Source of the DNA: an uncultured Thermoleophilia bacterium
GTDB taxonomy: Bacteria > Actinomycetota > Thermoleophilia > UBA2241
Direction of reading: 5' to 3'
NCBI GenBank assembly: GCA_963736645.1
Contig: CAVTPJ010000002.1
Coordinates: 266,779 to 330,778 of the forward strand
Length of the DNA: 64,000 bases
The notes beneath the pieces are model-generated. The model did no database searches. It worked only from the letters and a program-made list of their open reading frames with translations, and had not been told where the DNA came from. Within the stretch, counting starts at the first letter, position 1, and every line of letters begins with the position of its first letter. Made by a program: the position numbers and the translations under genes. Below, in pieces: positions 33,042 through 55,449 of this stretch.

Positions 33042-33073
33042 CTCGTTCCCTTCCACCAGCTGCCTGCGTGACC

Positions 33074-33862: not shown

Positions 33863-33950
33863 GTGACGATCCTTTCGGTTGGGTTCGGACACCCCGTTCA
33901 GTCCTCGCCGAAACGACACTTCCGGCGCCGTGACAATCGCTCTGGCTGCT

Positions 33951-34478: not shown

Positions 34479-34598
34479 CGGCTCTCCCTTCCCTTCATCC
34501 TGCCGGGCGGCCGCACCTGGACCCTTCGGCGATTCAAGACATTCGCCACGCAGGTGGTCAGCAGCGCACGCAGAGAGTACGTTCTGTGGCGTGGCGCG

Positions 34599-36781: not shown

Positions 36782-37070
36782 CTCGACTCCTTGCGGCACG
36801 CCATTCGGACGCGTTCGTTGACGAGGCGACACTCCGCGCACTCAGATCGACCAGATGCGCGCAATCAGGCCCGAGCCGCCCGACGGTCGCAGCATCACGT
36901 GTCAGAAGGGACGCACAGCGACAAAGCGGTCCCCAGTGAGGACGAAAGCGCCGTCCATGAGGGTCCACTGTTGCCGACGTCCAGCGCGACAGTGCGACCG
37001 AACATCCGCCGGGCGAGCAGCCGCAAGCCCAAGCCACGGCGCATGGATGGCGGCATCAGTGCAGCGCCGC

Positions 37071-38905: not shown

Positions 38906-38906
38906 C

Positions 38907-39788: not shown

Positions 39789-40744
39789 CAGGCGTTCGGG
39801 TCGGCGCCGAGCTCGAGCCGCGGGTCGATCACGGTGTACAGGATGTCTGTGATGAGATTGATGATGACGAAGATGAGCACGAGGATCAGCACAACGGCCT
39901 GCACGATCGGGAAATCCTTCTGGAGGATGGCCAGGACGAGCAACGACCCCAATCCATCAAGACCGAAGATGTTCTCCACAATGACCGCCCCAGCCACGAG
40001 CGTACCGATGGTCAGGCCCGTCACCGTGACGATGGGGATCATCGCGTTGCGCAGGACGTGCCGGCGAAGGATCGTCCGCTCCGACAGGCCCCGGCCCCTA
40101 GCCGTCATCACATGCTCTCGGCCCAGAACGTCGCGCACCGAACTCCGGGTGATCCGGGCGAGATAGGCGGCGCTCGCCACCGCGAGCGTGATCGCCGGCA
40201 GCGTCAGATGGGTAAGGCGACCCCACGCACCCTCTCCCGACCCGTAGACGGGGAACCACCCCAATCGGACGCACAGAAACGTGATCAGATACGTGCCCAG
40301 CACGAAGGCCGGCGTGGCGATCCCGATGGTCGCCGCTATGGTGATCGAGTGGTCGACGACTCCGGGGCGAAGCGCCGAAAGCGTACCGAACGCGATGCCG
40401 AAGATGATGATCAGAATGGTGGAGTACAGGACGAGGAGCGTCGTCGTCGCCAAGCGCCCCCCCACCAGATCCATGACATCCTGATTGAACACGATTGAAC
40501 GACCGAGATCGCCGTGGAAGACGCCGGAGAGCCAGTCCCAGTACTGCCTGAGGAACGAGTCGTCGAGGTGATACCGAGCCTTGACGGCGGCGATCTGCTC
40601 AGGCGAAGTCGTCCGGTTGCCCAGTACGAATGAGAGGACGCTGCCCGGCGCGATGTACATGAGGCTGAACACCGCGAAGGACGCGACGAGCAAGGTGATG
40701 CCGAGTCCCGCGACGCGCCGCGTGAGGAATACGGTGAAGCCCAT
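39788..40744 (-). CDS. Opp/Dpp-type ABC permease (OppB-like)
   Basis: GDLGRS, LPAITL, HVMTARGRGL, HVLRNAMIP, ENIFGLDGLG. Confidence 0.92.
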   Translation of the reverse strand: MGFTVFLTRRVAGLGITLLVASFAVFSLMYIAPGSVLSFVLGNRTTSPEQIAAVKARYHLDDSFLRQYWDWLSGVFHGDLGRSIVFNQDVMDLVGGRLATTTLLVLYSTILIIIFGIAFGTLSALRPGVVDHSITIAATIGIATPAFVLGTYLITFLCVRLGWFPVYGSGEGAWGRLTHLTLPAITLAVASAAYLARITRSSVRDVLGREHVMTARGRGLSERTILRRHVLRNAMIPIVTVTGLTIGTLVAGAVIVENIFGLDGLGSLLVLAILQKDFPIVQAVVLILVLIFVIINLITDILYTVIDPRLELGADPNA

Positions 40745-40748
40745 CGTC

Positions 40749-41888
40749 TCAGGACGGGATCGACGACCGGTCGAGGACGGACTCGAGCGCGTCGATCTCG
40801 CGCTCGAACTGCCGCCGCATGGCTGCCCGCTCCTCCGCAGGCAGCCATGCGGCATCGACCCCGTTCAGCACTATCTCGCGTGCCACCTCCGGGCCCTTCG
40901 CCAGCCCGATGATCCCGCGACTGTACTCACTGCCGAGGTCTGACCCCGGGAAGCAGGTGCTGTCGGACGACAGCGTCACGCGAAGCCCAGCGTCGATCAT
41001 CGTGCGAATGGGGTTGACCGCGAGGTCACCCCAGCCGTACTCCCGCGTGAACGAGGGGAGAGTCGCACTGGTGCTGCAGCAGAAGAAGACGCCCTCCGCC
41101 ACACATCGTTCGATCATCGCTGGGTCGTGGATGACCTGGTAGCCGTGGTCGATCCGTTCGCAGCCAAGCATGTCCAGGGCGATCGCGATGTTGGCCGCCG
41201 TCTCATCGCTGTTCTCGGCCACGTGCGCCGTGCGATGAAGGCTGGCGCGGTTAGCCAAGGCAAATGCCTCCGCGTACCGTTCCGGCGCCTCCCGGGCGTC
41301 GGTCGTGAGCGAGTCGAGGCCGATGCCGATGACCTCATCCCGCGGGTGCTCGATCATCACATCCAACAGTTCCCGGGCCTGTTCCGGCGAGTATGCCCTG
41401 TTGATGCAGGCGACCAGGCGACAGGTGACACCGAGATCCTGCTCTGCCGCGCGCACGCCGTCGATGAGGCCATCAACCATTGTCGCGTAAGGGACCCCGT
41501 CCGCAAGATGGTCCAGCGGCATGAAGAACATCTCCCGATAGCGGAGATTGCCCGTGCGCTTCTCGTCCGCGAGCGTCTCGTAGACGATTCTCGCGAAATC
41601 GTCGCGCTGGCGAGTGATGTGCAGGAACGGCGTCATCAACCTGAGGAACTCGACAAGGTCGGTCGAGCTGTAGAAGAAGCTCTCCGGCCCGGCCTCAGGC
41701 TCCACCGAATGGAATACGCGATAGGGGTCCGCCGCATCGTCCGATCCGAGACTGACACCGTACTTCCGCGCCAGTTCCAGCGCCGTTGTTGCGCGCATCG
41801 TGCTCTCGAGATGTATGTGGAGTTCGGCCTTCGGCAGGCGCCGAAGAAACTCCGCGTAGTCGATGCGCGAGGAGCCCTCTTCGCTCAC
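40749..41888 (-). CDS. Adenosine/adenine-deaminase-family amidohydrolase with atypical active-site motifs
   Basis: LPKAELHIHLE, HVAE, RIDHG, SSDS in place of xSDDP; GTGA overlap with oppA. Confidence 0.85.
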   Translation of the reverse strand: MSEEGSSRIDYAEFLRRLPKAELHIHLESTMRATTALELARKYGVSLGSDDAADPYRVFHSVEPEAGPESFFYSSTDLVEFLRLMTPFLHITRQRDDFARIVYETLADEKRTGNLRYREMFFMPLDHLADGVPYATMVDGLIDGVRAAEQDLGVTCRLVACINRAYSPEQARELLDVMIEHPRDEVIGIGLDSLTTDAREAPERYAEAFALANRASLHRTAHVAENSDETAANIAIALDMLGCERIDHGYQVIHDPAMIERCVAEGVFFCCSTSATLPSFTREYGWGDLAVNPIRTMIDAGLRVTLSSDSTCFPGSDLGSEYSRGIIGLAKGPEVAREIVLNGVDAAWLPAEERAAMRRQFEREIDALESVLDRSSIPS

Positions 41889-43531
41889 TGCACACCGCCG
41901 ATCGAGGCCGCCCACGGGTAGTAGAGATACGGGAATGAAGCCACGGCGCCACTCATACGCTTGTTCATGACGAGGATGTTTGTCTGGTAGACCAGTGGAG
42001 CCCACACCAGGTCGTCGGTGAGAATCTTCTGAAGCTTCACAACGGTCTCGGCACGCTTGGCATCATCGTATTCGGCGAAAGCCTCGCTCGTGAGCCTCGT
42101 CGCCTCGGGATTGTCGTAGTCGTTGAAGTTGTTCGGCGCCCCGGGACCCATGAAGCCGTACACATCCAGCGGGTCGGCAAAGTTGCCGTACCAGGTCGAG
42201 AGGAAGGCGTCGATGCCTTCGCGCGCCTTCGGATCCCAGTACAGACTGCCGTATCGCTGCACGGGAATCATCTTGATGTTCACGTTGAGGCCGATCTCTT
42301 CGCCGGCAGCCTTGAGGATGTTCGCTGTCTGACTGTGGGCGACTGAACTGCCCTGGGCGCCGATCGTTATCGTCTCGCCCGCCGCGCCTGCTTCGGCAAG
42401 GAGTGCCTTGCCGGCCGCAGCGTCGACACTCGGCGCCGGAATAGCATCGTAGCCGGCCTGGAACGTGGCCTCCGAGTATCCCCAAGAGGCCGGGGGCGCA
42501 AGTACCCGGGCAGGAATCGCGATTCCCTGGAACACGACGCTTGCGATCGCGGCACGGTCGGTAGCAGCCAGAAGCGCCTGACGGACACGGGGGTCAGAGT
42601 AGGGCCCCGTCGTCGCCGATGTGAGCAGGGACCAGAAAACGAGCGACTTGCCCAGATAGACACCGGTCTCGGGTGCGGTCTGAAGCTGAGTGAGGCCGGC
42701 AGGCGGCGTATAGAAGAACTGTCCGTCGATCTGCCCGCTGCGCAAAGCGTTCACCGCGGTTGATTCGTCGGCAATGAACCGAAGCTCGAGGCTCTTGACC
42801 TTCGGCTGAAGCGTGGTGTCCCAGTAGGCGTCGTTGCGGGCCATTGTGATGGACGTGCCCGACTGCCACTCTACGAACTTGAATGGGCCGGTGCCCATGA
42901 TGCCGCCTTTGGCAGTGCCGTAGTCGGTCCCCTTCGACTCCATGTACGCCCTCTGGCCGACGGTGCCGGCAGCCGAGGCCATGGCCTGGTTGAACAAAGC
43001 ATCTGGCTTCTTCAGCGTAACCGTCACCAAATCGTCAGCGGTCTTCTCGATCTTGTCGACGTTCACGAAGTAGAAGGAGAAGTACGACCCGACGTCGGGG
43101 TCAAGGCTGCGCTGCAGGCTGTACACGACGTCGTCAGCCGTCATCGGCGCTCCGTCCCAGAACGTGACACCTTGCCGGATCTTGTAGACCCAGGTCGTAG
43201 GCGTTGGATTCGTGAACGATTCCGCCAGGCCTGGCTCGATGCTGAAGTCCGGCGTGAGCCGCAACAGGCTCTCGCTCATGTTGGCGATCGATGTGTTCTC
43301 CGCGTAGTTGAACGACCTCGTCCAGTCAAGGCTGGACGGCTCGTAGGGTAGATTCCACGTGACCTTGTCGAGCTCGCCAGTGCCGGGCGGCGTCGTGGTC
43401 ATGAGGTCGTCCATGGCCGACGTCGGGGAGGCCGCGGTTGATGTCGAATCGCCTCCGCACGCGGCAACGCCGATGACGAGCATGACAAGCCCTAGCCAGA
43501 AGCCCATTCTCCACACACGCTGCATAGCCAT
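41885..43531 (-). CDS. Family-5 (Opp/Dpp) ABC substrate-binding lipoprotein
   Basis: Lipobox VAAC, EPGLAES, TFWDG, GTGPFKF, RNDAYW; AAGGAG RBS before ATG 43531. Confidence 0.9.
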   Translation of the reverse strand: MAMQRVWRMGFWLGLVMLVIGVAACGGDSTSTAASPTSAMDDLMTTTPPGTGELDKVTWNLPYEPSSLDWTRSFNYAENTSIANMSESLLRLTPDFSIEPGLAESFTNPTPTTWVYKIRQGVTFWDGAPMTADDVVYSLQRSLDPDVGSYFSFYFVNVDKIEKTADDLVTVTLKKPDALFNQAMASAAGTVGQRAYMESKGTDYGTAKGGIMGTGPFKFVEWQSGTSITMARNDAYWDTTLQPKVKSLELRFIADESTAVNALRSGQIDGQFFYTPPAGLTQLQTAPETGVYLGKSLVFWSLLTSATTGPYSDPRVRQALLAATDRAAIASVVFQGIAIPARVLAPPASWGYSEATFQAGYDAIPAPSVDAAAGKALLAEAGAAGETITIGAQGSSVAHSQTANILKAAGEEIGLNVNIKMIPVQRYGSLYWDPKAREGIDAFLSTWYGNFADPLDVYGFMGPGAPNNFNDYDNPEATRLTSEAFAEYDDAKRAETVVKLQKILTDDLVWAPLVYQTNILVMNKRMSGAVASFPYLYYPWAASIGGVQ

Positions 43532-43650
43532 CACGCTCCTTTTCACGAGTGACCCCCCCCTGTCGCTCTCAGCCGATCGAGTATGCCACACGACGAATGT
43601 CCCGCGATGTCGTGCCAGAAAGACCCTACGTCGGTGATCCGTCGCCGCAG

Positions 43651-43666
43651 ATAGGCAGATGCCCAC
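43651..43666. promoter_or_regulatory. Third copy of the palindromic operator-like box, in the oppA/hydantoinase divergent region
   Basis: ATAGGCAGATGCCCAC matches the reverse complement of 53561-53576 at 14/16 positions. Confidence 0.5.
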
Positions 43667-43861
43667 TCGTCACCGCGGTCAGTGAGCAGCAGCACAAAGG
43701 TCCCGATCAGGCTGGAATCCGGCACGAAGCCGGTCGCTCGGCGGCCATCAAGGAGGGACGATTCGATGCGGATGGCCTTCCGTGACACGTGAAACTCAAG
43801 CGACTACGCTACCGTCGAAATGGGGCCCGGCATGAGCGGGGAGGCAAGGACTGGTGGAAAC

Positions 43862-45238
43862 ATGAAAAGGAAGATCATCCACGGTGGCACGGTCGTCACG
43901 TCGAGCGACAGCTTTGAGGCGGACCTCCTCGTCGACGGCGAGACAATCACGGGGCTCGGGCACTTCAGCGATGTGGACGGCGAACGCATCGACGCCACTG
44001 GCTGCCTCGTCCTTCCGGGGTGCATCGACAGTCACACCCATCTTGCCCAGCCGGTGCGCGACGGCTTCACATGCGACGACTACGACACCGGCACGCAAGC
44101 GGCCGCGGCCGGGGGGACGACGTGCATCATTGACTTCGCGATACAGCGCGAGCCTGACGGACTCATGTCGTCATTGACGCAATGGACGGATCGTGCCGAG
44201 CCTGCCGCCCATGTGGACTTCGGGTTTCACATGGCCGTGACCCACTGGGATGAAGGCACCCGCCGTGACGTAGACCGCCTCATCGACGACGGCGTGCCCA
44301 GCTTCAAGGTCTTCATGGCTGCGGCCGGTGTCCCTCGGGTGAGTGATGCCGTCCTCCTGGCCCTGCTGCGCGAGACTCGCGAGCACGGTGGCCTCACCAT
44401 GGTGCATGCGGAGAACGGTGATGCGATCGACTATCTTGTGGCACAGACGCCAGATGCCCTGAGGGCCAGTCCGATCTCCCATGCCCGTTGCCGGCCGGAG
44501 TGGCTGGAGGCGGAGGCGACGAGCCGCGCGATCCGGCTCGCCGAGAGTGCTGAAGCACCTCTCTTCATCGTGCACGTCTCCTGCGCGCGCGCGGCCGACG
44601 AGGTGACCGCCGCGCGAGGCCGCGGCCTGCGAGTAATGGCAGAGACATGCACGCATTACCTCACGCTGTCCGCCGATAGGCTGAGACAGCCCGACGAATA
44701 CGCGATCCGATACACCTGTTCACCGCCGCTGCGAGAGCAGGGGAACCAGGAACGCCTGTGGAGGGCGCTGCGCGACGGCCAGCTCCAATCCGTCTCCAGC
44801 GATCATTGCCCCTTCACCGATGCACAGAAGCGGGTCGGCCTGGGGGACTTCACGCGAATCCCGCCGGGTCTAGCGGGCATCCAGCATCGCCTGCCGCTAC
44901 TCTGGGAGCACGGCGTGCGAGCCGGTCGCATCTCGCCCAGCCGGCTGGTCGAGCTCACATCGACCTCTGTGGCGCGCACTTTCGGACTGCTCCCGCGCAA
45001 AGGAACGATCGCGCCGGGAAGCGATGCCGATCTGGTGCTCTTCGACCCGGCTCGCAGCTACGAGCTTTCCGGTGGCACTTCCCTCATGAACATCGACTAC
45101 GACCTCTGGGAGGGTCAGTCGGTCGCGGGCTCCCCGCGAATGACTCTGTCTCGCGGTGAAATCGTGTACGCCGACGGACGAATCCTGAGCACGCCCGGGA
45201 GGGGGCGCTTCGTCAAGCGCTCGCCCGTCGACTACTGA
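43862..45238 (+). CDS. Dihydropyrimidinase/D-hydantoinase
   Basis: PGCIDSHTH, GGTTCIIDF, SFKVFMA, VHAENG, FIVHVSC, ETCTHYL, SPPLR, SSDHCPF, PGSDADLV. Confidence 0.92.
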   Translation: MKRKIIHGGTVVTSSDSFEADLLVDGETITGLGHFSDVDGERIDATGCLVLPGCIDSHTHLAQPVRDGFTCDDYDTGTQAAAAGGTTCIIDFAIQREPDGLMSSLTQWTDRAEPAAHVDFGFHMAVTHWDEGTRRDVDRLIDDGVPSFKVFMAAAGVPRVSDAVLLALLRETREHGGLTMVHAENGDAIDYLVAQTPDALRASPISHARCRPEWLEAEATSRAIRLAESAEAPLFIVHVSCARAADEVTAARGRGLRVMAETCTHYLTLSADRLRQPDEYAIRYTCSPPLREQGNQERLWRALRDGQLQSVSSDHCPFTDAQKRVGLGDFTRIPPGLAGIQHRLPLLWEHGVRAGRISPSRLVELTSTSVARTFGLLPRKGTIAPGSDADLVLFDPARSYELSGGTSLMNIDYDLWEGQSVAGSPRMTLSRGEIVYADGRILSTPGRGRFVKRSPVDY

Positions 45239-47307
45239 TCACCGCGCCCGGACGACGGCACGCCGGGGCAGGCTTCGGCCTCCTGCGTGCCAAGCGCCGC
45301 AGCCGCTGCCTCGAGGCCCAGTCCCTCCAGACCGCTCCTCGTCGGTCGGCCGGTCGCCGGGTCCCAGCCCTCTAGCTCGTAGAAGATCGTCTTCCACGCC
45401 TCCACGCCGTCGCGGTCGAGGCGACGTGGCACGACGTTGCGGTACGACCACTCGCCGTGCTCGAACACGGGAGAGTAGTAGGCCGGGGGTCTCCCTGGCA
45501 CATGGGATACGCCCGTGGCGTCGCACTCATAGACGAACTCAGGAAAGACCTCTTGGTCGCGATGGCGTCCCTGAAGCGCCCAGATGGCGCGGTCGAGGTT
45601 CAAGATGCGCCGACCGATCTCCATGGTCCCCGCGAAGTCCATCGCCCGCCCGGTCACCGCCTCGAGAAACCTCATCTCGCCATCCGGGGTCAGCCCCCGG
45701 TTGTCTTTGCCATATGGATTCAGGAAGTCCGCGAAAGCGTTGTCGCAGAGGCCACAGGACTGCTTCCAGAAGAGGCTGTAGTGAAGCAGCCACGCCGTCG
45801 TCCTCGCCATGTGCACGGAGTAGAGATTGCCATCGGAGAAGTCCACCATCCTGGGATCGCAGTAGGGCAGGGTCTTCGAGGCGACGATCGCGGCGACTTG
45901 GCCGGCGGTCAGCAGGGGTTCGCGTCCGTGCATGATGTCGAGGGTAGGAAGCCAGTAGGCGGCCACGTTGAAGTCGTGGCAGTTCACGTCACGGCTGGTG
46001 ACGATCGATGCATAGCCCCAGTAGGCCTCGGTCCGCGGGTCGAAGTGAATGGGGTAGCCCCAGAACGGTGCAGCCAGATCGCCCGTGGCGAGGTCTGTCT
46101 CGAGCCGTTCCCAACGCTCCGCAGCCCTGGGCAGCCCTTCGGCCAGGTCATCGCCGATCCCTCGACGGTAGGCGATGCTGTGGAGCAACTCCTCGACGAA
46201 GGCCAGTTCGCCGATGTCCGCGAACGGCAGGTCCGTGCGGACCTCCGCCGCGACACCCGCGACGCCCTGCGCATGCAGCGAGACAAGGTAGTCGAGCATG
46301 CAGTCGGCTTCGAACGCGTTGATACCCAGCTCGTTCAAAAGGTCGGCAGCGCGCCCCGATATCTCCGTGACCGCACCGTGCCTCGCGTGATCCCAACGCT
46401 GGTAGTACTGCGCCGTCCTGCAGTGTGCGGAGCTTCCCACTCGGCTCGCCGTCTTGGGCTTGCAGTTGAGATGGCACCCCCAGCAGCCCGAGCTACGCCG
46501 TGCATCCTCCTCGTAGGGCGCCCATTGGCGGCCGGGATGGCCGCCGAAGTGCGAGGTGACATACTCAAGCCACTGATGAATGCGCGGAGCGTCGGCGTCG
46601 TAGGAGTAGTTTCGCTCCGCCCACAGGCGTGCCTCGATGAGCGCCGACGCATCGGCCACCTGAACGCCTTGTGTACCGAGCACACTGATCGCTTTCAATC
46701 TCTTGGAGCCCCAGACCCCTCCGAAGCCACCCTGTCCGAAGGCGCAGCCGGCGTCGTGCTGGATGGTGCCGATCCGGCTGAGGTTCTCGCCCGCCGGGCC
46801 AATAGTCAGGACGGCCGGGCGCTCTCCGTCCGGGGCGACGCCGACAGTGCCCATGATCGCCTTCTGCGCGTCCGAGGTGCGAAGACCCCACAGCCCGGTA
46901 GCGTCCATGAAACTGACCTCATCATCAACGATGCTGATCCACACCGGGGTCTCGGATGCCCCCTCCAGCACAACGGCGTCCCAGCCTGCGAACTTCAGCA
47001 TCGTCGAGAGACGCCCTCCGCAGTTGGACCGGCCGAACCATTCGTCTGGATAGGACTGGGCCTGGATCCCGACCATCTCCGCCCGCCCGGAACCAGGTAC
47101 GAGTGTCCCCGAGAAGAGCCCGGGTGCGATGACGAGAGTGTTGGCCGGGTCGAAGCAGCCGACCGTCTTGTCGGGCACCAGATCGAAGAACAGCGCCGCC
47201 CCCAAACCGTGCCCTCCCCACCACTCCTCGTACGCCCCCAGAGGGCAGGACTCGAAGGTCGCCGTCGTCAGGTCGACGCGCAGGATCTTCCCCGAGTGGC
47301 CGTACAC
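45232..47307 (-). CDS. Aldehyde:ferredoxin oxidoreductase family (W/Mo-bis-pterin)
   Basis: GKILRVDLT, GPAGENL, GFGGVWGSKRLKAI, CWGCHLNC and SCGLC Fe-S ligands, YELEGWD. Confidence 0.9.
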   Translation of the reverse strand: MYGHSGKILRVDLTTATFESCPLGAYEEWWGGHGLGAALFFDLVPDKTVGCFDPANTLVIAPGLFSGTLVPGSGRAEMVGIQAQSYPDEWFGRSNCGGRLSTMLKFAGWDAVVLEGASETPVWISIVDDEVSFMDATGLWGLRTSDAQKAIMGTVGVAPDGERPAVLTIGPAGENLSRIGTIQHDAGCAFGQGGFGGVWGSKRLKAISVLGTQGVQVADASALIEARLWAERNYSYDADAPRIHQWLEYVTSHFGGHPGRQWAPYEEDARRSSGCWGCHLNCKPKTASRVGSSAHCRTAQYYQRWDHARHGAVTEISGRAADLLNELGINAFEADCMLDYLVSLHAQGVAGVAAEVRTDLPFADIGELAFVEELLHSIAYRRGIGDDLAEGLPRAAERWERLETDLATGDLAAPFWGYPIHFDPRTEAYWGYASIVTSRDVNCHDFNVAAYWLPTLDIMHGREPLLTAGQVAAIVASKTLPYCDPRMVDFSDGNLYSVHMARTTAWLLHYSLFWKQSCGLCDNAFADFLNPYGKDNRGLTPDGEMRFLEAVTGRAMDFAGTMEIGRRILNLDRAIWALQGRHRDQEVFPEFVYECDATGVSHVPGRPPAYYSPVFEHGEWSYRNVVPRRLDRDGVEAWKTIFYELEGWDPATGRPTRSGLEGLGLEAAAAALGTQEAEACPGVPSSGRGDQ

Positions 47308-47308
47308 C

Positions 47309-47857
47309 TCAGGATCCCTCGTCCGTTGGCATGCCCAGCCGAGCCCAGCCTTCTCGCCGGCGATTCACCTCGTAGCCTGACGCGCCCAAGGGCGCAACGG
47401 ACGTGGAGTCGAGGGCGCGCACGGGACACACTTGCACGCAGGCGAGCTCGCCGTCGTCGTGACGCCAGTAAGGGGTGTCGCGGCACAGGTCGCACTTCGT
47501 CGACGTCCTTGACGCCGCGTCGAACCGGACGCGGCTGGGAGAGAAGTGGCAAGCCCCGATGCACTTCCGGCATCCTGTGCAGCTATCGCGATCGACGTAC
47601 CGCACGTTGAAGTGCTGCTGGTCGATCGCCAAGGCCCCCGCGGGACAGGCGGTGACGCAGGCGGCGTCCCTGCACTGGCGGCATGTGCCGAGAAGAATGT
47701 CCGTAGGAAACGAGCCGAACACGTCCTCTACGATGAGGATTCGTGCCGTGTGGAGCTGCGCCCGCCCCTCGTGCGCAAGCGCGCACATCAGCATGCAACT
47801 GCGGCAACCCGTGCACTTCCGTGGATCGCCCACGAGGTACAGGTGAGCCTCCTGCAT
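47309..47857 (-). CDS. 4Fe-4S dicluster electron-transfer subunit of the AOR
   Basis: CTGCRSCMLMC, CRQCRDAACVTACP, CTGCRKCIGAC, KCDLC, CVQVCP. Confidence 0.9.
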   Translation of the reverse strand: MQEAHLYLVGDPRKCTGCRSCMLMCALAHEGRAQLHTARILIVEDVFGSFPTDILLGTCRQCRDAACVTACPAGALAIDQQHFNVRYVDRDSCTGCRKCIGACHFSPSRVRFDAASRTSTKCDLCRDTPYWRHDDGELACVQVCPVRALDSTSVAPLGASGYEVNRRREGWARLGMPTDEGS

Positions 47858-48027
47858 GTCGCACTCGCCCTCGATGCCATCTGGACGGCCGACGTTCGCC
47901 ATCATGCAACCCCGTCTCCCGATGCCCCCAAGTGCCTGACTCACGATAGCAGCAGGGCATCACTTCGAACGGTCCGCAGAGCTGCCGCCGAACCGTCAGC
48001 CGCCCGCACCCGGCCGGCCCGCGGCGC

Positions 48028-49023
48028 TCACGCCTCGCCAAACAGACCGCGCCACTCCCGGCCCGTCTCTTCCATAAGGGAGCGGGCGCCCGAGCGCCGC
48101 ATGCGATGGAGTCGCGGCATGCCCAACTCCCACTCCTGCATCCAGCACGCCGCGAACTCGCCCCGAGCCGTTTCCTCGAAGATCTCGGCGATCTCGCCAC
48201 GATCGATCACGCGCGGTCCGCTGGTGCGGACCGCGAACTCGCAGGTGCGGCTGCTCTTGGACGAGATGTACTCCTCAATCCCGACCTCGTCCATGACATC
48301 GACGACCGACCTCAGCGAGCGAATCGCCTTCGCGTAGGCGAAATGCGGCGCACAGCCGTTGGCGACCAGCGTCTCGAAGGTAGCCCGCATGAGCGCTATC
48401 GTGCCGCCGTATAGCACCTGCTCTTCGAAGTTGTCGCCCTCCGTCTCCCACTCGAAGTCCACCGCAACCACCCCGACGCGAGTGCTGCCGCACGCCTTGG
48501 CGAGGCCGAGCACGGTCTCCCAGGCGCGACCCGTCACGTCCTGGTCAACGGCGACGGCCCCGTAGATGCCGGAGCCCTCCATGAACTTCTCGCGCACCAA
48601 GTGCCCGGGCGAGTTCGGCACGTAGAGCACGACGTCGACGTCGACCGGCGGTTTGATCGCCCCGTAGAGGACATTGAACCCACTGGCGAAGCTCAGCGTC
48701 TTGCCGGGGCTGAGCTGATCGTGAATCGCGTCACGGTAGACGGCCGGCTGGGCGGGGTCGGGAAGCAGGACGTGCACGATGTCCGCCGCTGCAGCCGCCT
48801 CAGCGATGCTCATGACCGGTAAGCCGTCAGCTTCCGCCTTGCCCCAATCCGAGAATCGCCGTCTGTCGCCGGCACCCACGATGACCGAGAGGCCGCTGTC
48901 ACGCATGCAAAGCGCCTGTGGGCCGCCTTGAACGCCGTAGCCGATCACCGCCACGACGCGGTCCTTGAGGGGCTCGAGGCTGATTTCGTGATCTCGGACG
49001 ACCTGATTCAATGTTATGTCCAT
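48028..49023 (-). CDS. Divergent ketol-acid reductoisomerase (KARI)-family oxidoreductase
   Basis: IGYGVQG, LLPDPAQ, SGFNVLYG, PNSPGHLVR, ETEGDNFEEQ, AEFA-like TCEFA. Confidence 0.85.
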   Translation of the reverse strand: MDITLNQVVRDHEISLEPLKDRVVAVIGYGVQGGPQALCMRDSGLSVIVGAGDRRRFSDWGKAEADGLPVMSIAEAAAAADIVHVLLPDPAQPAVYRDAIHDQLSPGKTLSFASGFNVLYGAIKPPVDVDVVLYVPNSPGHLVREKFMEGSGIYGAVAVDQDVTGRAWETVLGLAKACGSTRVGVVAVDFEWETEGDNFEEQVLYGGTIALMRATFETLVANGCAPHFAYAKAIRSLRSVVDVMDEVGIEEYISSKSSRTCEFAVRTSGPRVIDRGEIAEIFEETARGEFAACWMQEWELGMPRLHRMRRSGARSLMEETGREWRGLFGEA

Positions 49024-49059: not shown

Positions 49060-50256
49060 CTAGCGCTGCAGTTTGGCTGCCTGAGCTTCGGCCTTGATCT
49101 TGTCCAAGTCCGCGAAGCGCGAAAGCGGCAGACGCTCCAAGTACCAGGACTTCTCACCCGTCATCACAAACCGGGCCATGTCCCGACCGATCGTGGGCGC
49201 TTCGATCACGCCGTTTCCGCCGGCGCCGGCAGCCAGCATATAGCCCTCCACGGGCGTGTCGCCGAGGATGGGAAGGAAGTCGGCGGGCTCGGCGCGATAG
49301 CCGACCCACTCGTTGCTGATCGAGGATTCCAGCAGGCGCGGGTAGACCTCCATCAACTCTCCGGTGAGGAACTCCCAGAAGTACGCATCGGTGCCCCCGG
49401 TCATCGGCAGGTCATCGGGGTCCCAGATGCCGGCATGCGTCTCATCGCTGAGGTCCATGGTCATGTGCGCCTTGCAGATGAACACGTTGTCTTTGTCCTT
49501 GCGCGCGTAGAAACGCGGGTACTTGAGGACGGGGAATGGATACCCCAGACCCGCCGCAGGGGCCAAGATGAAGACCTCCGCCTTCGTATGCCACAGCGGG
49601 AGATCGAGCCCGACGTATCCCGCAGTGGTGCGCGCCCAAGGCCCGGAGGCATCGATGACGACATCGATGTCGAAGTGACCCTTCTCAGTCGTCACGCCCG
49701 CCACCTTGCCATCTCTCATGGTGACGTCTTCGACCTTGGTTCCGATCATGATCTTGGCTCCGGCCTCACGCGCGCGGCGCACGAGGCTGTTGGCCAGCAT
49801 CGTCGCGTCGAAGAAGCCGTCGTCAGGACACCAGCCAGCGCCGAGGACCCCCTCGAGATTCAGATCCGGGATGATCTCGTGGATCTTCGCGTGGTCGTGC
49901 CAGTACTCTGCGGTATAGCCGGACGCCACCGCCAAGTCGACCGCCCGCATGACGTAGGTCTCGTAGTCCTTGTATGGCGCGACGGTCAGCGTGCCGGTCC
50001 GCTCGAAGCCCGTGGAACCGGGCTCTTCCTTCTCCATGCCCGTGTAGAACCTGAAGCCGAAGAGCCGGACCGACCAGAACTCGTGCGCGACGGAATCGTC
50101 GATCAGGCAGAAGGTCGCGGCCGACTTGGCCGTCGTGCCTGAGCCGATGGTGTTCTTCTCAAAGACCGTGACATCCGCGTCAGGGTACTGGCTGAGGAAA
50201 TACGCGATAGATGCGCCGACGATGCCGCCGCCTACGACGCCGACTCTCTTCTTCAT
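49060..50256 (-). CDS. FAD-dependent amine/amino-acid oxidoreductase (DAO/sarcosine oxidase beta family)
   Basis: VVGGGIVGASIAY, GSGTTAKSA, DASGPWA, PILG, GGNGVIEAPTIG. Confidence 0.88.
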   Translation of the reverse strand: MKKRVGVVGGGIVGASIAYFLSQYPDADVTVFEKNTIGSGTTAKSAATFCLIDDSVAHEFWSVRLFGFRFYTGMEKEEPGSTGFERTGTLTVAPYKDYETYVMRAVDLAVASGYTAEYWHDHAKIHEIIPDLNLEGVLGAGWCPDDGFFDATMLANSLVRRAREAGAKIMIGTKVEDVTMRDGKVAGVTTEKGHFDIDVVIDASGPWARTTAGYVGLDLPLWHTKAEVFILAPAAGLGYPFPVLKYPRFYARKDKDNVFICKAHMTMDLSDETHAGIWDPDDLPMTGGTDAYFWEFLTGELMEVYPRLLESSISNEWVGYRAEPADFLPILGDTPVEGYMLAAGAGGNGVIEAPTIGRDMARFVMTGEKSWYLERLPLSRFADLDKIKAEAQAAKLQR

Positions 50257-50316
50257 TTCTCCTCCTCGTTGGCATCCGTCCACGCTTCTCTCGCCGATCC
50301 AGTGTGGCTTGCCGGA

Positions 50317-51288
50317 CTACAGCCAGACCGGATGCACGCCTCGGGTCTGGAGTCGGTCGATCAGCACGGGCAGGAACTCGTTCAGATCGGCCACGATTCC
50401 GATGTCCGCTTGCGTGAAGATCGCGGCGTCTTCGTCGTTGTTCACGGCCGCGACCACTCGGGAGTCGCGAATGCCGACGACGTGCTGGATGGCGCCAGAG
50501 ATGCCGACCGTTAGGCACACCTCGGGCTTCACCTTGATTCCCGACAGGCCCAGCCATTCGGGCAGCCAGTCCCGATCGGACGAGACGGGCCTGGAGCAAC
50601 CCACCTGGCCACCCAGAAGACTCGCGAGACGTCGGATCATCTCGAGATGCTCCATCTCCTTCACTCCTCGGCCGACGTCCACGACCGCTTTGGCTTCCTC
50701 CAGCCGGGCGCCGCTCGTGGTCTTGGCTCTCTCGCTCACCACAGATAGCTCCGGATCGCCAGCAGGCACCTGCAGTGTCTCGGCGCGCGCCAAGCGGCCC
50801 TTGCGCGACGTGGCCTCGAAAGACTTCTCGGCCACCGTCAGCACTGTAGCACCAAGCACGAAGCGATAGCTGGCCAAGCCTGCACCACCGTACAGAACGC
50901 AGCTGGCAGTAGTCTCGCCGCTGGCTGGATCGATCGTGACATCGACCGCCCAAGCGGCATACGCCGCGCCGGCGCGTTCCGCGACACGGGGAGCGACGTC
51001 CATACCCATCTTGCTGGCGCCAATGAGCACCAGGGTCGGCTGACACACACTCATCGCCGTGGCCAAGATGGCGGCCCATCTCGCCGAATCCAGGTGGTCC
51101 GCGTCGGTCGAGTACACAACGTCCGCGCCGCTGGAGGCATAGACCTCGAGCTCGGCCGCGGCGACGTCACCGCCGAGGCACAGAGAGACCTGGCCTCCCG
51201 TCGCGTCGGCGAGCTGACGCGCCTTTCCCAGCAACTCAAGCGCTACGACCGGACGATCACTCCAGACCAGAATCCCCGCCGCCATCAC
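50317..51288 (-). CDS. etfA: Electron transfer flavoprotein alpha subunit
   Basis: LEEAKAVVDVGRG, GCSRPV, VGISGAIQHVVGI, VNNDEDAAIF. Confidence 0.92.
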   Translation of the reverse strand: MMAAGILVWSDRPVVALELLGKARQLADATGGQVSLCLGGDVAAAELEVYASSGADVVYSTDADHLDSARWAAILATAMSVCQPTLVLIGASKMGMDVAPRVAERAGAAYAAWAVDVTIDPASGETTASCVLYGGAGLASYRFVLGATVLTVAEKSFEATSRKGRLARAETLQVPAGDPELSVVSERAKTTSGARLEEAKAVVDVGRGVKEMEHLEMIRRLASLLGGQVGCSRPVSSDRDWLPEWLGLSGIKVKPEVCLTVGISGAIQHVVGIRDSRVVAAVNNDEDAAIFTQADIGIVADLNEFLPVLIDRLQTRGVHPVWL

Positions 51289-52085
51289 GCCTCGCCTCTG
51301 TACGAGAGGACGTTCTCCTGCAGCAGCATGTCGATGAGAGCATCGGCCATCGCCGTGAGGTCCATGTCCTTCAGCACACGTCGCGTGCGGTCGACCACGA
51401 TTCCCGTCTCGCTGAGCACGGAGTACCCGGAGTGCACGGCGAGTGCCTCCTTTGTCAGGCCCAACTCCTCAAGACTCCATGAGTTGTTGGGCAGCTTCTG
51501 GGCCTTCATCGCCTGCAGGAGCGTGACGGGGCGAGGTACGAACGCTTCCTCGGCGACGCTGACGATCGCAGGGAGGGGAACACTCACTGTCTGGACGCCC
51601 TCCTCGAGATCCCGGTCGGCCGTCAAGACCGCGCCGTCGACGCCGATCTCGCGAGCATGGGACACGAACGGCAGTGCCAGACGCTCCGCCAGGCGCGGCC
51701 CTGTCTGATGGGAGTAGCCGTCGTCGCTCGCAAAGCCGCAGACGATGAGGTCGAAGGGGCCACGCTTACGGATCGCGGCCTCCAGCACGCGAACGGTCAC
51801 CGCCGCATCCGCGGCACCGTCGTACGGGTCCTCGATCACAGTCGCCTCGTCCGCACCGATGGCCAGCACGCTCTTGACCGCGCCACGCGCCGCAGGCGGT
51901 CCAAAGCACAGGATCTCCACCGACGCCTCGGACCCCTCCTTCAGGCGAACGGCTGCTTCGACGGCTCCCTTGTCGAGATCGCCGAATCGTGCAGGCACAC
52001 CAGCCATGCGCATTGCACGGCTCTCCGGATTCACCCGAATCTCTGCCGCGTCGATTGAGTACTTCACCAGGGCCAGTATCTTCAA
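51285..52085 (-). CDS. etfB: Electron transfer flavoprotein beta subunit
   Basis: LVKYSID, DKGAVEAAVRLKE, AIGADEA, CGFASDDG; TTG start after GGAGGA. Confidence 0.9.
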   Translation of the reverse strand: MKILALVKYSIDAAEIRVNPESRAMRMAGVPARFGDLDKGAVEAAVRLKEGSEASVEILCFGPPAARGAVKSVLAIGADEATVIEDPYDGAADAAVTVRVLEAAIRKRGPFDLIVCGFASDDGYSHQTGPRLAERLALPFVSHAREIGVDGAVLTADRDLEEGVQTVSVPLPAIVSVAEEAFVPRPVTLLQAMKAQKLPNNSWSLEELGLTKEALAVHSGYSVLSETGIVVDRTRRVLKDMDLTAMADALIDMLLQENVLSYRGEA

Positions 52086-52314
52086 GAGTACTCCTCCACG
52101 GGTCGATGCCTCCAAAGACAGCGCTCGCTGGCTACTCTGCCTCCTGTCGCGCCTTCGCCGAGCTTGGGCACGCCGATCGCATCTCGCTGTCGTTGGGAGA
52201 TTGGGGAAGGCAGAGCGCGCCTCTCGGCGCGCCGCGAACTGATCCTGGCCCTGCGGATGGTCGCCGGGGGAGTCTGGGAGCGGCCATCGCAGGGCCGATG
52301 TTCGTCCACCTGCC

Positions 52315-53370
52315 TTACGGCACGATGCAGGCCATCACACCTTTCTGCGCGTGAAGACGGTTCTCGGCCTCGTCGTAGCACGGCGTCCCCCACTTCGGGT
52401 CGTCGAGGACCGCGTCGCTAACCTCGTAGCCTCGCTCGCAGGGAAGGCAGTGCATGTAGAAGGCAGAGTCCTTGGCCAGGCGCATCCGCTCCTCGTCCGC
52501 GATCCAACCGCGGTACTTGTCGAACAACTTGGCCATGTCCTCATGCCTCGGCTCCGCGCTGAACGGCGGCAGCATATCGAGGCAGACGTAGTTCTTGGCA
52601 TAGACGACGTCGGCGGACTCGCAGGCGTCCTCCATGCTGTCAACCTCCGCGAATGTGCCACCATTCTGCTCCACGTTGGCAATGATGGCGTCCCTGACGT
52701 CAGGGTCGATGCGAAGCTCGGGTGGATGGGCGAAGACGATGTTAGGACCGAAGTAGCTGGCCGCGTACATGAAGTCGTGGTGCGGAGCGATCGGCTTCTT
52801 GGTGCTTGGCGAGTAGGCCCAGGAAACGGCCAGCTTGCGCCCGCGAAGATCCCTCCCCAGGTGCTCCCACAGAGTCATTGCGTCGGCCATGCCCTGGTTG
52901 GGATGGTACTTGTTGTCCTCCATGTTGATCACGGGGACCTCGGCGTACTTGGCGAACTCCTGGATGATCTTCAACGACTTGTCGTAGTCCCAGTCGACAG
53001 CCCCGCCGAGGATACGGACTGCAATCGCGTCGCCCATTCTGGACAGCACGCGAGCGACATCGGCGATGCGCTCGGACTGATACGCCACATCCTCGCCCTC
53101 CAGTGTAGGCAACCGCATCGAAGACGGCTCCAAGAAGTGTGCGTGCCCGCCCAACTGAAAGATGCCGGCCTCAAAGCTGTTGCGGGTGCGCAAGGAGGGG
53201 TTGAAGAACAGCATCAGCAGCGTTCGGACCGGAAGGATGTCTTGATGGGTCCGACGCATGGCCATGTCGGCCTTGAGTCGCAGGCCGACCTCGAGCATGG
53301 TCTCGATCTCCCGTCGGCTGAAATCACGCAGAGTGATGAAGTCGCGGCCTTTGAGTCCCTCTGTGATCAA
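52315..53370 (-). CDS. YgeW/N-acylornithine-type ('knotted') carbamoyltransferase of unknown substrate
   Basis: FFNPSLRTR, HPNQGMAD, SWAYSPS..KP loop, HCLP, EAENRLH; TTG start with AAGGAG RBS. Confidence 0.87.
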   Translation of the reverse strand: MITEGLKGRDFITLRDFSRREIETMLEVGLRLKADMAMRRTHQDILPVRTLLMLFFNPSLRTRNSFEAGIFQLGGHAHFLEPSSMRLPTLEGEDVAYQSERIADVARVLSRMGDAIAVRILGGAVDWDYDKSLKIIQEFAKYAEVPVINMEDNKYHPNQGMADAMTLWEHLGRDLRGRKLAVSWAYSPSTKKPIAPHHDFMYAASYFGPNIVFAHPPELRIDPDVRDAIIANVEQNGGTFAEVDSMEDACESADVVYAKNYVCLDMLPPFSAEPRHEDMAKLFDKYRGWIADEERMRLAKDSAFYMHCLPCERGYEVSDAVLDDPKWGTPCYDEAENRLHAQKGVMACIVP

Positions 53371-53499
53371 TTCCCGTTCTCCTTTCGCACTGGCCCCAGC
53401 TCTCTATCTCGCCTCGACTCGGTGAGACTCATGGGTGGAGATTCACCGGCGAAGGTGACCGTTAGTGGTGCCTGACGCGCAGAATGACCTTCGTCGAGC

Positions 53500-53576
53500 A
53501 TGCTCTGGGAAGTCGATGGCCCTGAGAAGTGGCCGTGGGCACGTCTTGAACCTGAGCCCTGTGTGCATATGCCTAT
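53500..53576 (-). promoter_or_regulatory. Promoter/operator module copy B upstream of the knotted carbamoyltransferase operon
   Basis: Box GTGTGCATATGCCTAT (53561-53576), 23-bp block 53523-53545 (22/23 identical to copy A), TTCTCA-N17-GAGCAT. Confidence 0.7.
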
Positions 53577-53982: not shown

Positions 53983-55443
53983 CTACTTGGCGGTTCTTCT
54001 GCCCCCACCACGGCGACCGGGACTCACTGCAATGTGACTCCTTCGGTTGGTGGCGATGTTGAGCAGGATGCCGAGACCGGCGAGCACGACGAGCATGCTG
54101 GTGCCTCCCAGGGAGACCAGCGGGAGCGGCACGCCGGTCAGCGGCAGCAGGCCGAGGGCCGCGCCGACGTTGATGCACGCCTGACCGATCACGATGGCGG
54201 TGATGCCGGTGGCGAGCAGCTTGCCGAAGAGGTCCTTGCAGTCGAGGGCGATGCGGAAGCAGGCCCAGGCGAGGGCGACGTAGAGGGCCAGCAGCACGAG
54301 CAGGCCGATGAGCCCGAGCTCCTCCCCGATGATGCCGGTGATCATGTCCGTGGTCTGCTCGGGGAGAAAGCCGAACTTCTGCACGGAGTTGCCGAGGCCG
54401 ACGCCGAACACCCGCCCCGAAGCGATGGAGATGAGCGACTGCGTCGCCTGGTAGCCGGTGTTCTGCGGGTCCTTCCACGGGTCGAAGAATGTGACCAGCC
54501 GCTCGAGCCGGTAGGGCTCCACGGCGATCAGAGCAAGCACGGCGACGATGCCGGCGACGGCGAGCCCGAAGAGGTAGCGCAGCGGGGCGCCTGCCGCGAC
54601 GAGCACCGCCACGACCGCAGTCACGAGGACCAGCGTCGTGCCGAGGTCCGGCTCCAGCATGATGAGTCCCGCCGCCGGGACGATGCCGATCGCCGCCAGC
54701 ATCAGGAACCCTCTCAGATGGAGGACCTCGCGCGGGCGCTTCACGATGAGCGTCGCGACGAGGATGACGGCGGCGAGCTTGGCGAACTCGCTGGGCTGCA
54801 CGCCCTGCCCGCCGACGATCAGCCACCGCCGGGCGCCGTTGATCGAGGTGCCGACGCCGGGCACGAGGACGAGGACGAGGCCGGCCACGGCAAGTCCCGC
54901 GAACGGCACGGCCATCTTGCGGTACCAGGAGTAGTCGACGCGGGACAGCACCCACATCGTCCCCACGCCGAGGGCGACCCAGAGCACCTGCCTGCCGAAG
55001 AAGTAGAAGCTGCTTCCGTACTGGAAGTAGGCCTGGGCAGCGGACGCGCTGTAGGCCATGACGAGCCCGTAGACGACCAGCAGGAAGGTGACCAGCGTCA
55101 GCGTGCGCCGCTCGGCCACGCCGGGTCCGAGCGGAGCGCCCGACGCGGCGGCCTTGGGGCGTCGGGCGGCCGGCGGGCGCCCGGGCTCCGTCGGCGCCGC
55201 GCCCGCGGCGCGCGAGGAGGCGGAGGAGGCGCGCCGCTCGGCGGCCCGCCGGTCGGCAGCGCGGCGCTCGGCGGCGCGGCGGTCGGCGCCCGGCGCCGCG
55301 CCGGCGGACGTGGCGCGCCGCTCGGCCGCGCGGCGGTCCGCGGCGCGACGATCGTCGCCCGAGCGACGGCGGCGCGGAGCGTCCTCGACCCAGTCGAGGT
55401 GGTCCAGTTCCACGCGTTCGGCCCCGCGGCCCGACGACCTCAC
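53983..55443 (-). CDS. ftsW: Peptidoglycan polymerase FtsW; last 14 residues supplied by island DNA
   Basis: GARRWL, QPSEFAK, EPDLGT, YQATQS, LPEQTTD, GVPLPLVSLGGTS. Confidence 0.93.
   Translation of the reverse strand: MRSSGRGAERVELDHLDWVEDAPRRRRSGDDRRAADRRAAERRATSAGAAPGADRRAAERRAADRRAAERRASSASSRAAGAAPTEPGRPPAARRPKAAASGAPLGPGVAERRTLTLVTFLLVVYGLVMAYSASAAQAYFQYGSSFYFFGRQVLWVALGVGTMWVLSRVDYSWYRKMAVPFAGLAVAGLVLVLVPGVGTSINGARRWLIVGGQGVQPSEFAKLAAVILVATLIVKRPREVLHLRGFLMLAAIGIVPAAGLIMLEPDLGTTLVLVTAVVAVLVAAGAPLRYLFGLAVAGIVAVLALIAVEPYRLERLVTFFDPWKDPQNTGYQATQSLISIASGRVFGVGLGNSVQKFGFLPEQTTDMITGIIGEELGLIGLLVLLALYVALAWACFRIALDCKDLFGKLLATGITAIVIGQACINVGAALGLLPLTGVPLPLVSLGGTSMLVVLAGLGILLNIATNRRSHIAVSPGRRGGGRRTAK
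54029..54044 (+). repeat. Right 16-bp direct repeat of the island, inside the ftsW 3' end
   Basis: Identical to 24746-24761. Confidence 0.9.
55228..55356 (-). repeat. Imperfect 15-bp tandem repeats encoding seven (D/E)RRA units in the FtsW N-terminal extension
   Basis: DRRAADRRAAERRA...ADRRAAERRAADRRAAERRA. Confidence 0.7.
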
Positions 55444-55449
55444 TGGGCG

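Follow-up and report, generated by a model that had tools for sequence, protein, structure and literature searches.

The transcarbamylase UGTCase of Rubrobacter xylanophilus (Rxyl_2847), described in 2013, catalyses the phosphate-dependent cleavage of allantoate, with an activity of 5.9 U/mg at 60 °C (PMC4016543). The oxamic transcarbamylase (OXTCase) AllFGH of Escherichia coli, described in 2024, interconverts oxalurate and phosphate with oxamate and carbamoyl phosphate (CP) (PMC11326118). The substrate of E. coli YgeW (YTCase) has been known since 2025, and the enzyme converts 2,3-diureidopropionate and phosphate to albizziin and CP (PMC12507026). Here, we describe a carbamoyltransferase (CTase) encoded on the minus strand at positions 52315–53370 of a 64,000-nucleotide stretch of DNA from an uncultured Thermoleophilia bacterium (assembly GCA_963736645.1, contig CAVTPJ010000002.1), hereafter the window, and compare its locus with these systems.

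The CTase is best explained as a catabolic, trimeric, knotted-fold carbamoyltransferase of an uncharacterised clade. Its sequence places it in none of the families of N-acetylornithine carbamoyltransferase (AOTCase), N-succinylornithine carbamoyltransferase (SOTCase), ornithine carbamoyltransferase (OTCase), and YgeW. The enzyme probably phosphorolyses the second ureido group of allantoin and delivers the CP to carbamate kinase (CK). Oxalurate offers the best explanation for its substrate, an assignment that we hold tentatively. We infer both the direction of the reaction and the identity of the substrate.

Sequence features and family placement

The CTase gene starts with a TTG codon, 8 nt downstream of AAGGAG, and the N-terminus of the protein, MITEGLKGRDF, corresponds to the start of its homologues. 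The translation contains the motifs NPSLRTRNSF (residues 57–66), SWAYSPSTKKP (residues 183–193), and HCLPCE (residues 307–312), and thus the SLRTR, SWAYSPSTKKP, and HCLPCE segments listed in a first-pass annotation of the window. The residues characteristic of the transcarbamylase superfamily, S59-L-R-T62, H156-P-N-Q159, H307-C-L-P310, R119, and R338, do not vary within the clade.

The residues that distinguish AOTCase, SOTCase, and the knotted group were taken from Shi et al. (PMC4581275), in AOTCase numbering. An alignment with AOTCase shows that the CP-binding set is intact: S49, R51, and T52 of AOTCase correspond to S59, R61, and T62 of the CTase, R112 to R119, H148 and Q151 to H156 and Q159, C294 and L295 to C308 and L309, and R322 to R338. 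The pair that anchors the second substrate, E144 and K252 in AOTCase, is present as the invariant E151 and K259. The specificity residues of AOTCase are replaced, E92 by S99, N185 by K192, K302 by E316, and W77, which is contributed by the neighbouring subunit, by L87, and the replacements are conserved as such across the clade. SOTCases have alanine, serine, proline, valine, or glutamine at position 92, proline at 185, and valine, isoleucine, or glutamate at 302; the serine and glutamate of the CTase fit this pattern, but the lysine at 185 does not. The comparison with SOTCase covered these three positions; the succinyl-binding residues of that family are H176, R178, and R278. The CTase sequence contains no DxxxSMG loop of the OTCase type.

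The loop SWAYSPSTKKP aligns to TWTYHPKPLN of AOTCase, and the insertion VDWDYDKS to VDWSKDRE of the extended 120s loop of AOTCase. These loops, together with the match of the predicted structure described below, indicate that the CTase is a knotted-type transcarbamylase. The proline-rich loop had been regarded as a hallmark of YgeW in the first-pass annotation; however, this loop and the extended 120s loop are markers of knotted transcarbamylases in general (PMC4581275). UGTCases, also called pseudo-ATCases, are unknotted and contain the motif H(T/S)LP; the CTase has HCLP, whereas the pseudo-ATCase neighbour in the window has HTLP.

The best NCBIfam match of the CTase is the AOTCase equivalog NF003384, with 254.7 bits against a cut-off of 288. 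The OTCase models reach 200–210 bits against cut-offs of 281–306 (199.6 against 280.85 for TIGR00658), and the YgeW models TIGR03316 and NF005538 reach 103.9 and 115 bits against cut-offs of 500 and 453, aligning only up to approximately residue 320. The CTase has 351 residues and SLRT, compared to 396 residues and STRT in YgeW. AOTCase and SOTCase are expected in an arginine cluster as the sole OTCase-type enzyme, but the CTase is encoded in an allantoin island, and a canonical OTCase is encoded elsewhere. The typical neighbourhood of ygeW (ygeX, ygeY, hyuA, ssnA, xdhD, and yqeA) is represented near the CTase only by a hydantoinase and a carbamate kinase. No PALP (YgeX), M20 (YgeY), SsnA, or XDH/XdhD gene was found among the island genes scanned, which agrees with the earlier remark that YgeX and YgeY are not seen.

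The genome contains seven carbamoyltransferase genes (loci L007–L013 on contigs C2, C5, and C13), including an ATCase and the canonical OTCase at C2:190664–192064, which has DxxxSMG (TDTFTSMGQE) and HCLP. The paralogue at C5:180298–181200 is prematurely terminated; it may represent a pseudogene or contain a frameshift.

Phylogeny and predicted structure

More than 100 protein clusters are 72–87% identical to the CTase, and the named ones are labelled ornithine or N-acetylornithine carbamoyltransferase. Relatives were gathered by a scan of one genome per species and divided into two tiers by identity. Tier 1 (68–86% identity) is distributed among Chloroflexota, Thermoleophilia, other Actinomycetota, Acidimicrobiia, and Armatimonadota, and tier 2 (45–58% identity) among Bipolaricaulota, Thermotogota, and others. 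In a maximum-likelihood tree, tier 1 is monophyletic (SH-aLRT 100) with a stem length of 1.17, and is nested in a group with tier 2 (support 96), to which AOTCase is the sister (support 91). E. coli YgeW is positioned outside the group of AOTCase, tier 1, and tier 2. Residues R86, H197, H198, D199, N260, and Y261 are invariant in tier 1, and tier 2 has Y86, P197, S199, and W261 at the corresponding positions. The tier-1 clade is a new specificity variant within the known transcarbamylase superfamily. No description of the clade, its operon, or its partners introduced below, a ketol-acid reductoisomerase (KARI)-like protein and a DAO-family flavoenzyme linked to electron transfer flavoprotein (ETF), was found in the literature.

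The AlphaFold2 model of the CTase, calculated from a 34-sequence alignment, has a pLDDT of 93.5; an earlier model based on 10 near-identical sequences reached a pLDDT of 58 and was discarded. The model superposes best on AOTCase (3kzk), with TM-scores of 0.88 and 0.92 and an rmsd of 2.1 Å. OTCases rank below AOTCase, and YgeW is absent from the 50 best structural matches.

The tier-2 relatives at loci L059–L092 (Bipolaricaulota and Thermotogota; 45–50% identity) are encoded in a conserved array of hydantoinase, carbamate kinase, CTase, and a second CTase, in which odd QCMP or HVMP motifs replace HCLP. The array looks like another uncharacterised ureide pathway.

Conserved operon and its redox partners

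The gene neighbourhood was counted for 43 tier-1 loci. The reference sequences of loci L050 and L054 have frameshifts or stops. A DAO gene is present within 10 kb of the CTase gene in 29 of the 43 loci. A cupin occurs in 28 loci, a KARI-like gene in 24, CK in 22, and a pseudo-ATCase alongside the CTase in 21. The usual gene order is (ABC transporter), pseudo-ATCase, CK, allantoinase, ArgE/DapE-like M20, cupin, KARI-like, CTase, FixC, FixX, EtfB, EtfA, DAO, racemase, cytosine-deaminase-like amidohydrolase, and (GcvT-SHMT fusion). The pairing of CTase with DAO is universal in this operon type, the KARI-like gene is absent from five otherwise complete operons, and ETF is absent from about seven. 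The allantoinase and the cupin, an (S)-ureidoglycine aminohydrolase (UGlyAH), score above their NCBIfam cut-offs both in the window and in one Chloroflexota operon. The fusion of GcvT (aminomethyltransferase) with SHMT is approximately 905–960 residues long and is encoded at C7:100423–103299 in the genome studied here, and at L051:7601–10315 and eight other loci. It recurs at the ends of nine allantoin operons, next to the CTase in varying positions, which suggests a link to glycine outside the current pathway models.

Two other readings of the operon were rejected. A Chloroflexota variant of the reductive uric-acid pathway does not fit, because the amidohydrolase scores as an allantoinase (533 bits, above the cut-off), the cupin scores as a UGlyAH, and the M20 gene of the Chloroflexota operon is ArgE/DapE-like and below the YgeY cut-off. 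A creatinine/N-carbamoylsarcosine pathway, to which the GcvT-SHMT fusion and a cytosine/creatinine-deaminase-like gene might point, leaves the racemase, cupin, and UGTCase unexplained.

Some close members of the clade have neighbours of four other kinds. L094 is located with XDH, an AsnC regulator, and arginase-like and deacetylase-like genes, without a pseudo-ATCase, and L095 with isochorismatase, a PuuE-like gene, AtuA, and DUF4387. L096, 85% identical to the CTase, is accompanied by a tier-2 CTase, a DDAH-like gene, LutABC, and CK (L096:10001–13070), and L097 by a DDAH-like gene, Fe-ADH, and an aldehyde:ferredoxin oxidoreductase (AOR) (L097:1052–2982). The polysaccharide-deacetylase neighbours are only partly PuuE-like: the cut-off is 425 bits, whereas one of them scores 303 and two score approximately 65. 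Loci L094–L097 have the same active-site signature as operon-linked tier 1; either several precursors lead to the same substrate, or the specificity is shifted by small changes (I/V87, T99, and D312). The DDAH/arginine-deiminase-like neighbours of L096 and L097 hint at a deiminase-type pathway for a guanidino compound that uses this CTase clade.

The KARI-like protein would pass the TIGR00465 ilvC cut-off, yet it is a paralogue, and the canonical IlvC, 39% identical, is encoded on contig C1. In 25 operon-linked orthologues, the aspartate and glutamate of magnesium site I are kept (ETEGDNFEEQ), but the glutamate pair of site II is invariantly replaced by lysine and serine (FAYAKAIRSLR compared to IAYFECLHELK). 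These changes fit a loss of the alkyl-migration step with retention of 2-hydroxy/2-oxo-acid redox activity. According to our stereochemical reasoning, (2R)-dihydroxyisovalerate and (S)-ureidoglycolate would be spatially equivalent. The KARI-like genes form an operon-linked subfamily of their own, for which the IlvC label given by automatic annotation would be wrong. The solved structures closest to DAO are the proline dehydrogenase beta subunit of P. horikoshii, dimethylglycine dehydrogenase, and glycine oxidase. These nearest relatives are of the glycine-derivative type, and therefore DAO is probably an amine-oxidising flavoenzyme of that type. The pathway roles of the KARI-like protein and DAO proposed below are putative.

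Proposed pathway and alternative explanations

The genome (3.2 Mb) is 85% complete, and profile searches of it found no Ldh_2/AllD, no AllG of the AllFGH OXTCase, no ureidoglycolate lyase AllA, and no M20 protein of the AllC/UAH/carbamoylase type above the cut-off. Because AllD, AllA, AllC/UAH-type M20, and AllFGH were not found, ureidoglycolate has no other known outlet, and the operon must dispose of it. The CTase is the only enzyme of the regulon able to remove the ureido group of ureidoglycolate, and CK has no other second source of CP in the island. A 56-nt element common only to the upstream regions of the CK and CTase genes is likewise consistent with a role in ureide phosphorolysis.

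In the proposed pathway, allantoin would be racemised and then opened by allantoinase, and the pseudo-ATCase (UGTCase) would split allantoate into ureidoglycine and CP. The cupin would yield (S)-ureidoglycolate, and the KARI-derived dehydrogenase would oxidise it to oxalurate. In an alternative or additional branch, the ETF-linked DAO would oxidise ureidoglycine to an (N-carbamoyl-)amidine, which a deaminase would hydrolyse to oxalurate; this conjectural use of the cytosine-/adenosine-deaminase-like amidohydrolase would parallel the conversion of cytosine to uracil. The CTase would then convert oxalurate and phosphate to oxamate and CP, and CK would use both CP molecules to form ATP, NH3, and CO2. 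The order of cupin, KARI-like, and CTase genes appears to mirror that of AllE, AllD, and OXTCase in E. coli (PMC11326118), and oxidation by a KARI-derived dehydrogenase requires no new chemistry. The context makes the CTase a candidate for oxamate carbamoyltransferase activity (EC 2.1.3.5): the genome encodes UGlyAH, CK, and a candidate dehydrogenase, and neither AllD nor AllFGH was found in it. The complete scheme, which we put forward with considerable reserve, would comprise a transcarbamylase-fold oxamate carbamoyltransferase non-homologous to AllFGH, a KARI-derived (S)-ureidoglycolate dehydrogenase, an ETF-linked ureidoglycine dehydrogenase, and an amidine deaminase. With UGTCase, these enzymes would constitute a previously undescribed allantoin pathway that is phosphorolytic throughout, recovers both ureido groups as CP (2 ATP per allantoin), occurs widely in Chloroflexota, and reached the Thermoleophilia genome by transfer of an island. 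We found no paper combining allantoin, KARI, ETF, and carbamate kinase, and no report of a transcarbamylase-fold OXTCase.

Several points weigh against oxalurate as the substrate. All members of the clade are known only from sequence. The KARI-like protein and DAO-ETF would be redundant if both yielded oxalurate. The universal adjacency of CTase and DAO would be better explained by an amine product of the CTase, and oxamate is not an amine of the DAO type. The GcvT-SHMT fusions that end nine operons hint at glycine, which is not made by the oxalurate route, and close paralogues adjoin DDAH/ADI-like, arginase-like, and polysaccharide-deacetylase-like genes in loci that have neither DAO nor cupin. 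The amide nitrogen of oxamate is an unusual partner for the transcarbamylase fold. The only proven OXTCase, AllFGH, is unrelated to the CTase (PMC11326118). Because the two redundant routes, the CTase–DAO pairing, and the GcvT-SHMT fusions count against oxalurate, rival explanations stay live, above all those with ureidoglycolate and N-carbamoylglycine as substrates.

The retention of the ureidoglycolate-producing cupin in 28 loci and the five otherwise complete operons without a KARI-like gene are compatible with direct phosphorolysis of (S)-ureidoglycolate to 2-hydroxyglycine by the CTase, which we consider unlikely. The product would decay to glyoxylate and NH3, pulling the reaction, or be oxidised at once to oxamate by the adjacent DAO, and the tight CTase–DAO pairing suits such an unstable shared intermediate. 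The KARI-like, AOR, ADH, and LutABC partners would then handle glyoxylate and glycolate; the context-dependent redox partners (AOR in the window and at L097, Fe-ADH, SDR, LutABC, and an LctP permease) can all be read as enzymes of these compounds. However, the order of cupin, KARI-like, and CTase genes suggests an intervening step, no glyoxylate-assimilation genes (gcl, glxR, or malate synthase) are conserved in the operon, and to our knowledge no ureidoglycolate-phosphorolysing activity has been described. Alternatively, the KARI-like protein could reduce the N-acylimine form of ureidoglycolate to N-carbamoylglycine, from which the CTase would release glycine and CP, so that each gene has one role, collinear with the operon. 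Glycine would then be a substrate for oxidation by the glycine-oxidase-like DAO/ETF or for GcvT-SHMT, which would turn it into serine. The nearest characterised relatives of DAO all oxidise glycine derivatives, and in several lineages the GcvT-SHMT fusions adjoin the CTase, at varying positions. The hydantoinase, DDAH-like, cytosine/creatinine-deaminase-like, and isochorismatase genes of the neighbourhoods could all supply N-carbamoylglycine or provide a way around it, and the related YgeW cleaves an N-carbamoyl-alpha-amino acid (PMC12507026). Nevertheless, a glycine carbamoyltransferase is improbable, as it demands an unprecedented reductive dehydroxylation by the KARI fold, wastefully reduces and re-oxidises the same carbon, and leaves the operons without a KARI-like gene with no reductase; no paper was found on N-carbamoylglycine phosphorolysis or such a pathway.

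A chemically natural order, in which the product of the CTase is the substrate of DAO, would result if the CTase made ureidoglycine from allantoate, DAO converted it to oxalurate, and the pseudo-ATCase took the other ureide; loci of the L094 type have a CTase without a pseudo-ATCase. However, the pseudo-ATCase family itself cleaves allantoate (5.9 U/mg at 60 °C; PMC4016543) and occurs with the CTase in 21 loci, and such a function is quite improbable because two enzymes would serve one step. The knotted fold and the nearby hydantoinase and carbamate kinase recall YgeW, and the first-pass annotation called the CTase YgeW-type, but phosphorolysis of 2,3-diureidopropionate by a YgeW orthologue in a reductive uric-acid pathway has very little to recommend it. 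The YgeW models score 104–115 bits against cut-offs of 453–500, compared to 255 bits for the AOTCase model, the protein has 351 rather than 396 residues, AOTCase is the best structural match (TM 0.88–0.92) with YgeW outside the top 50, YgeW branches outside the clade, and YgeX, YgeY, SsnA, and XdhD were not found among the island genes scanned. An anabolic role in arginine synthesis as an ornithine, N-acetylornithine, or N-succinylornithine carbamoyltransferase, the function given in public annotation, has the source annotations and the best NCBIfam match on its side, but is hardly credible: the score is below every cut-off, E92, N185, K302, and W77 are not conserved, DxxxSMG is missing, a canonical OTCase is encoded at C2:190664–192064, and the context is catabolic, in an island absent from 18 same-genus genomes. 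The evidence therefore supports the first-pass view of a knotted-type CTase that acts on a substrate other than ornithine or N-acetylornithine in a catabolic setting. Among the substrates suggested there, oxalurate is the leading candidate, whereas the conserved partners, being allantoin enzymes, lend no support to N-carbamoylsarcosine and N-carbamoyl-beta-alanine. These two compounds may still be considered, since a dihydropyrimidinase-type gene adjoins the CTase operon, although in this window only.

Genomic island

The island has a length of about 29 kb (approximately 24.8–54.0 kb) and is located between ftsW (53986–55449) and murG (23646–24812) of the dcw cluster. The two genes are adjacent in two same-genus genomes, the GC content of the 30–54 kb part is 61–67%, compared to 70–73% in most of the flanks, and none of 18 same-genus genomes contains a tier-1 orthologue. 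These properties indicate that the ureide regulon was acquired horizontally as an island in the dcw cluster.

The order of CTase, etfB, etfA, FAD oxidoreductase, and KARI-like genes described in the first-pass annotation is confirmed on the same strand, and the junctions from the CTase down to AOR are short or overlapping (Table 1). The allantoin genes of the window are split between the CTase operon and the segment at 28.6–36.8 kb, which encodes CK, PucR, the pseudo-ATCase, the cupin, the nitroreductase, the allantoinase, and the racemase. The adenosine-deaminase-like amidohydrolase may be the counterpart of the cytosine-deaminase-like protein of the Chloroflexota operons.

Table 1. Features of the window that belong to the carbamoyltransferase operon and the surrounding island.
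Feature	Position	Strand	Basis or remark
Tier-1 knotted carbamoyltransferase (CTase)	52315–53370	−	351 aa; Pfam OTCace_N + OTCace
56-nt element, copy B	53490–53545		Upstream of CTase
EtfB (ETF beta)	51285–52115	−	Domain/family profiles
EtfA (ETF alpha)	50317–51288	−	Domain/family profiles
DAO-family FAD amine-oxidising flavoenzyme	49060–50283	−	Profiles and closest solved structures
KARI-like paralogue, candidate ureidoglycolate dehydrogenase	48028–49023	−	Two Mg-binding Glu replaced (E to K, E to S)
4Fe-4S dicluster protein, lineage-specific operon extension	47309–47944	−	Domain/family profiles; absent from the first-pass list
AOR family, lineage-specific extension	45232–47307	−	Domain/family profiles; absent from the first-pass list
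D-hydantoinase/dihydropyrimidinase, divergent from operon end	43820–45238	+	TIGR02033, 522 bits, above cut-off
Opp/Dpp-type ABC transporter (substrate-binding protein, SBP, 41885–43666; permeases; ATPases)	37071–43666	−	
Atypical adenosine-deaminase-like amidohydrolase	40749–42005		Embedded in Opp-type transporter operon
Asp/Glu/hydantoin racemase, probable allantoin racemase	36074–36841	−	
Allantoinase	34599–35957	−	TIGR03178, 505 bits, above cut-off
Nitroreductase-family protein	33954–34598	−	Between allantoinase and cupin
UGlyAH cupin	33074–33919	−	TIGR03214, 237 bits, above cut-off
Pseudo-ATCase, UGTCase-like (allantoate phosphorolysis, by homology)	32022–33056	−	HTLP motif; PMC4016543, PMC4581275
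PucR-family regulator	30142–31956	−	
56-nt element, copy A	29963–30018		Upstream of CK
CK	28646–29677	−	TIGR00746, 413 bits, above cut-off

The two copies of the 56-nt element are 79% identical and are the only ones in the genome, and their similarity continues to a shared upstream TGCAnATGCACA-like palindromic motif. Copy B had previously been described as a promoter; the repeat is real, but a scan for the sigma-70 consensus gave no match. The element is probably the site of a common regulator, and PucR is encoded between the copies.

A gene for a sigma-70-type factor (27714–28600) is located inside the island directly downstream of CK, where it lay within a spurious 714-residue open reading frame. 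The CK gene is duplicated in inverted orientation at C2:453569–454496, with 99.8% nucleotide identity over 928 nt that is limited to the coding region. The second copy lies beside a carbamoyltransferase gene (C2:450732–452030) in which a TDCWWWTG loop replaces DxxxSMG.

Implications

Allantoin is a major nitrogen compound of plants and soil. Members of the clade serve as markers of a conserved operon with some 12–15 genes, which suggests energy-conserving use of allantoin in abundant, poorly cultured Chloroflexota and Actinomycetota. The public names ornithine or N-acetylornithine carbamoyltransferase for the clade and, by the NCBIfam cut-off, ketol-acid reductoisomerase for the KARI-like protein are almost certainly wrong. 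Once its substrate is assigned, the clade would extend the transcarbamylase family by one specificity class. Such an assignment could show that the oxamic transcarbamylase reaction has been solved a second time by an unrelated protein, or it could uncover a new ureide intermediate, and it would also show the KARI fold recruited to purine catabolism.

Comparison with known systems

The closest characterised relative and the closest solved structure of the CTase is the AOTCase of Xanthomonas, with 36–40% identity over the full length. Both proteins have the proline-rich loop and the extended 120s loop, and the CP-binding residues and the E144/K252 pair of AOTCase are kept in the CTase. However, AOTCase functions in arginine synthesis, whereas the CTase has a catabolic context, serine, lysine, glutamate, and leucine at the specificity positions, and invariant residues of its own. 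The mode of action proposed for the CTase resembles that of YgeW, a knotted transcarbamylase that supplies a dedicated carbamate kinase in the catabolism of a purine-derived ureide. YgeW belongs to another clade, is 45 residues longer with extra helices, and has STRT instead of SLRT. Its partners YgeX, YgeY, SsnA, and XdhD and the reductive urate pathway differ from the allantoin setting of the CTase.

UGTCase, like the CTase, is a catabolic carbamoyltransferase of allantoin degradation coupled to carbamate kinase, and its homologue is encoded in the same island and operons. In contrast to the CTase, it is an unknotted protein of the ATCase branch, has the H(T/S)LP motif, and targets the first ureido group, that of allantoate, whereas the CTase presumably acts on the second. 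AllFGH occupies the position proposed for the CTase, between the steps of UGlyAH and a dehydrogenase and that of carbamate kinase, but is an FdrA/DUF1116/DUF2877 heteromer with no relationship to the CTase in sequence or fold, and was not found in this genome. The catabolic OTCase and putrescine transcarbamylase of the arginine and agmatine deiminase pathways convert a ureido compound and phosphate to an amine and CP, which is used to form ATP, as proposed for the CTase. Unlike the CTase, they belong to the unknotted OTCase branch and recognise their substrates by the DxxxSMG or 230s loop.

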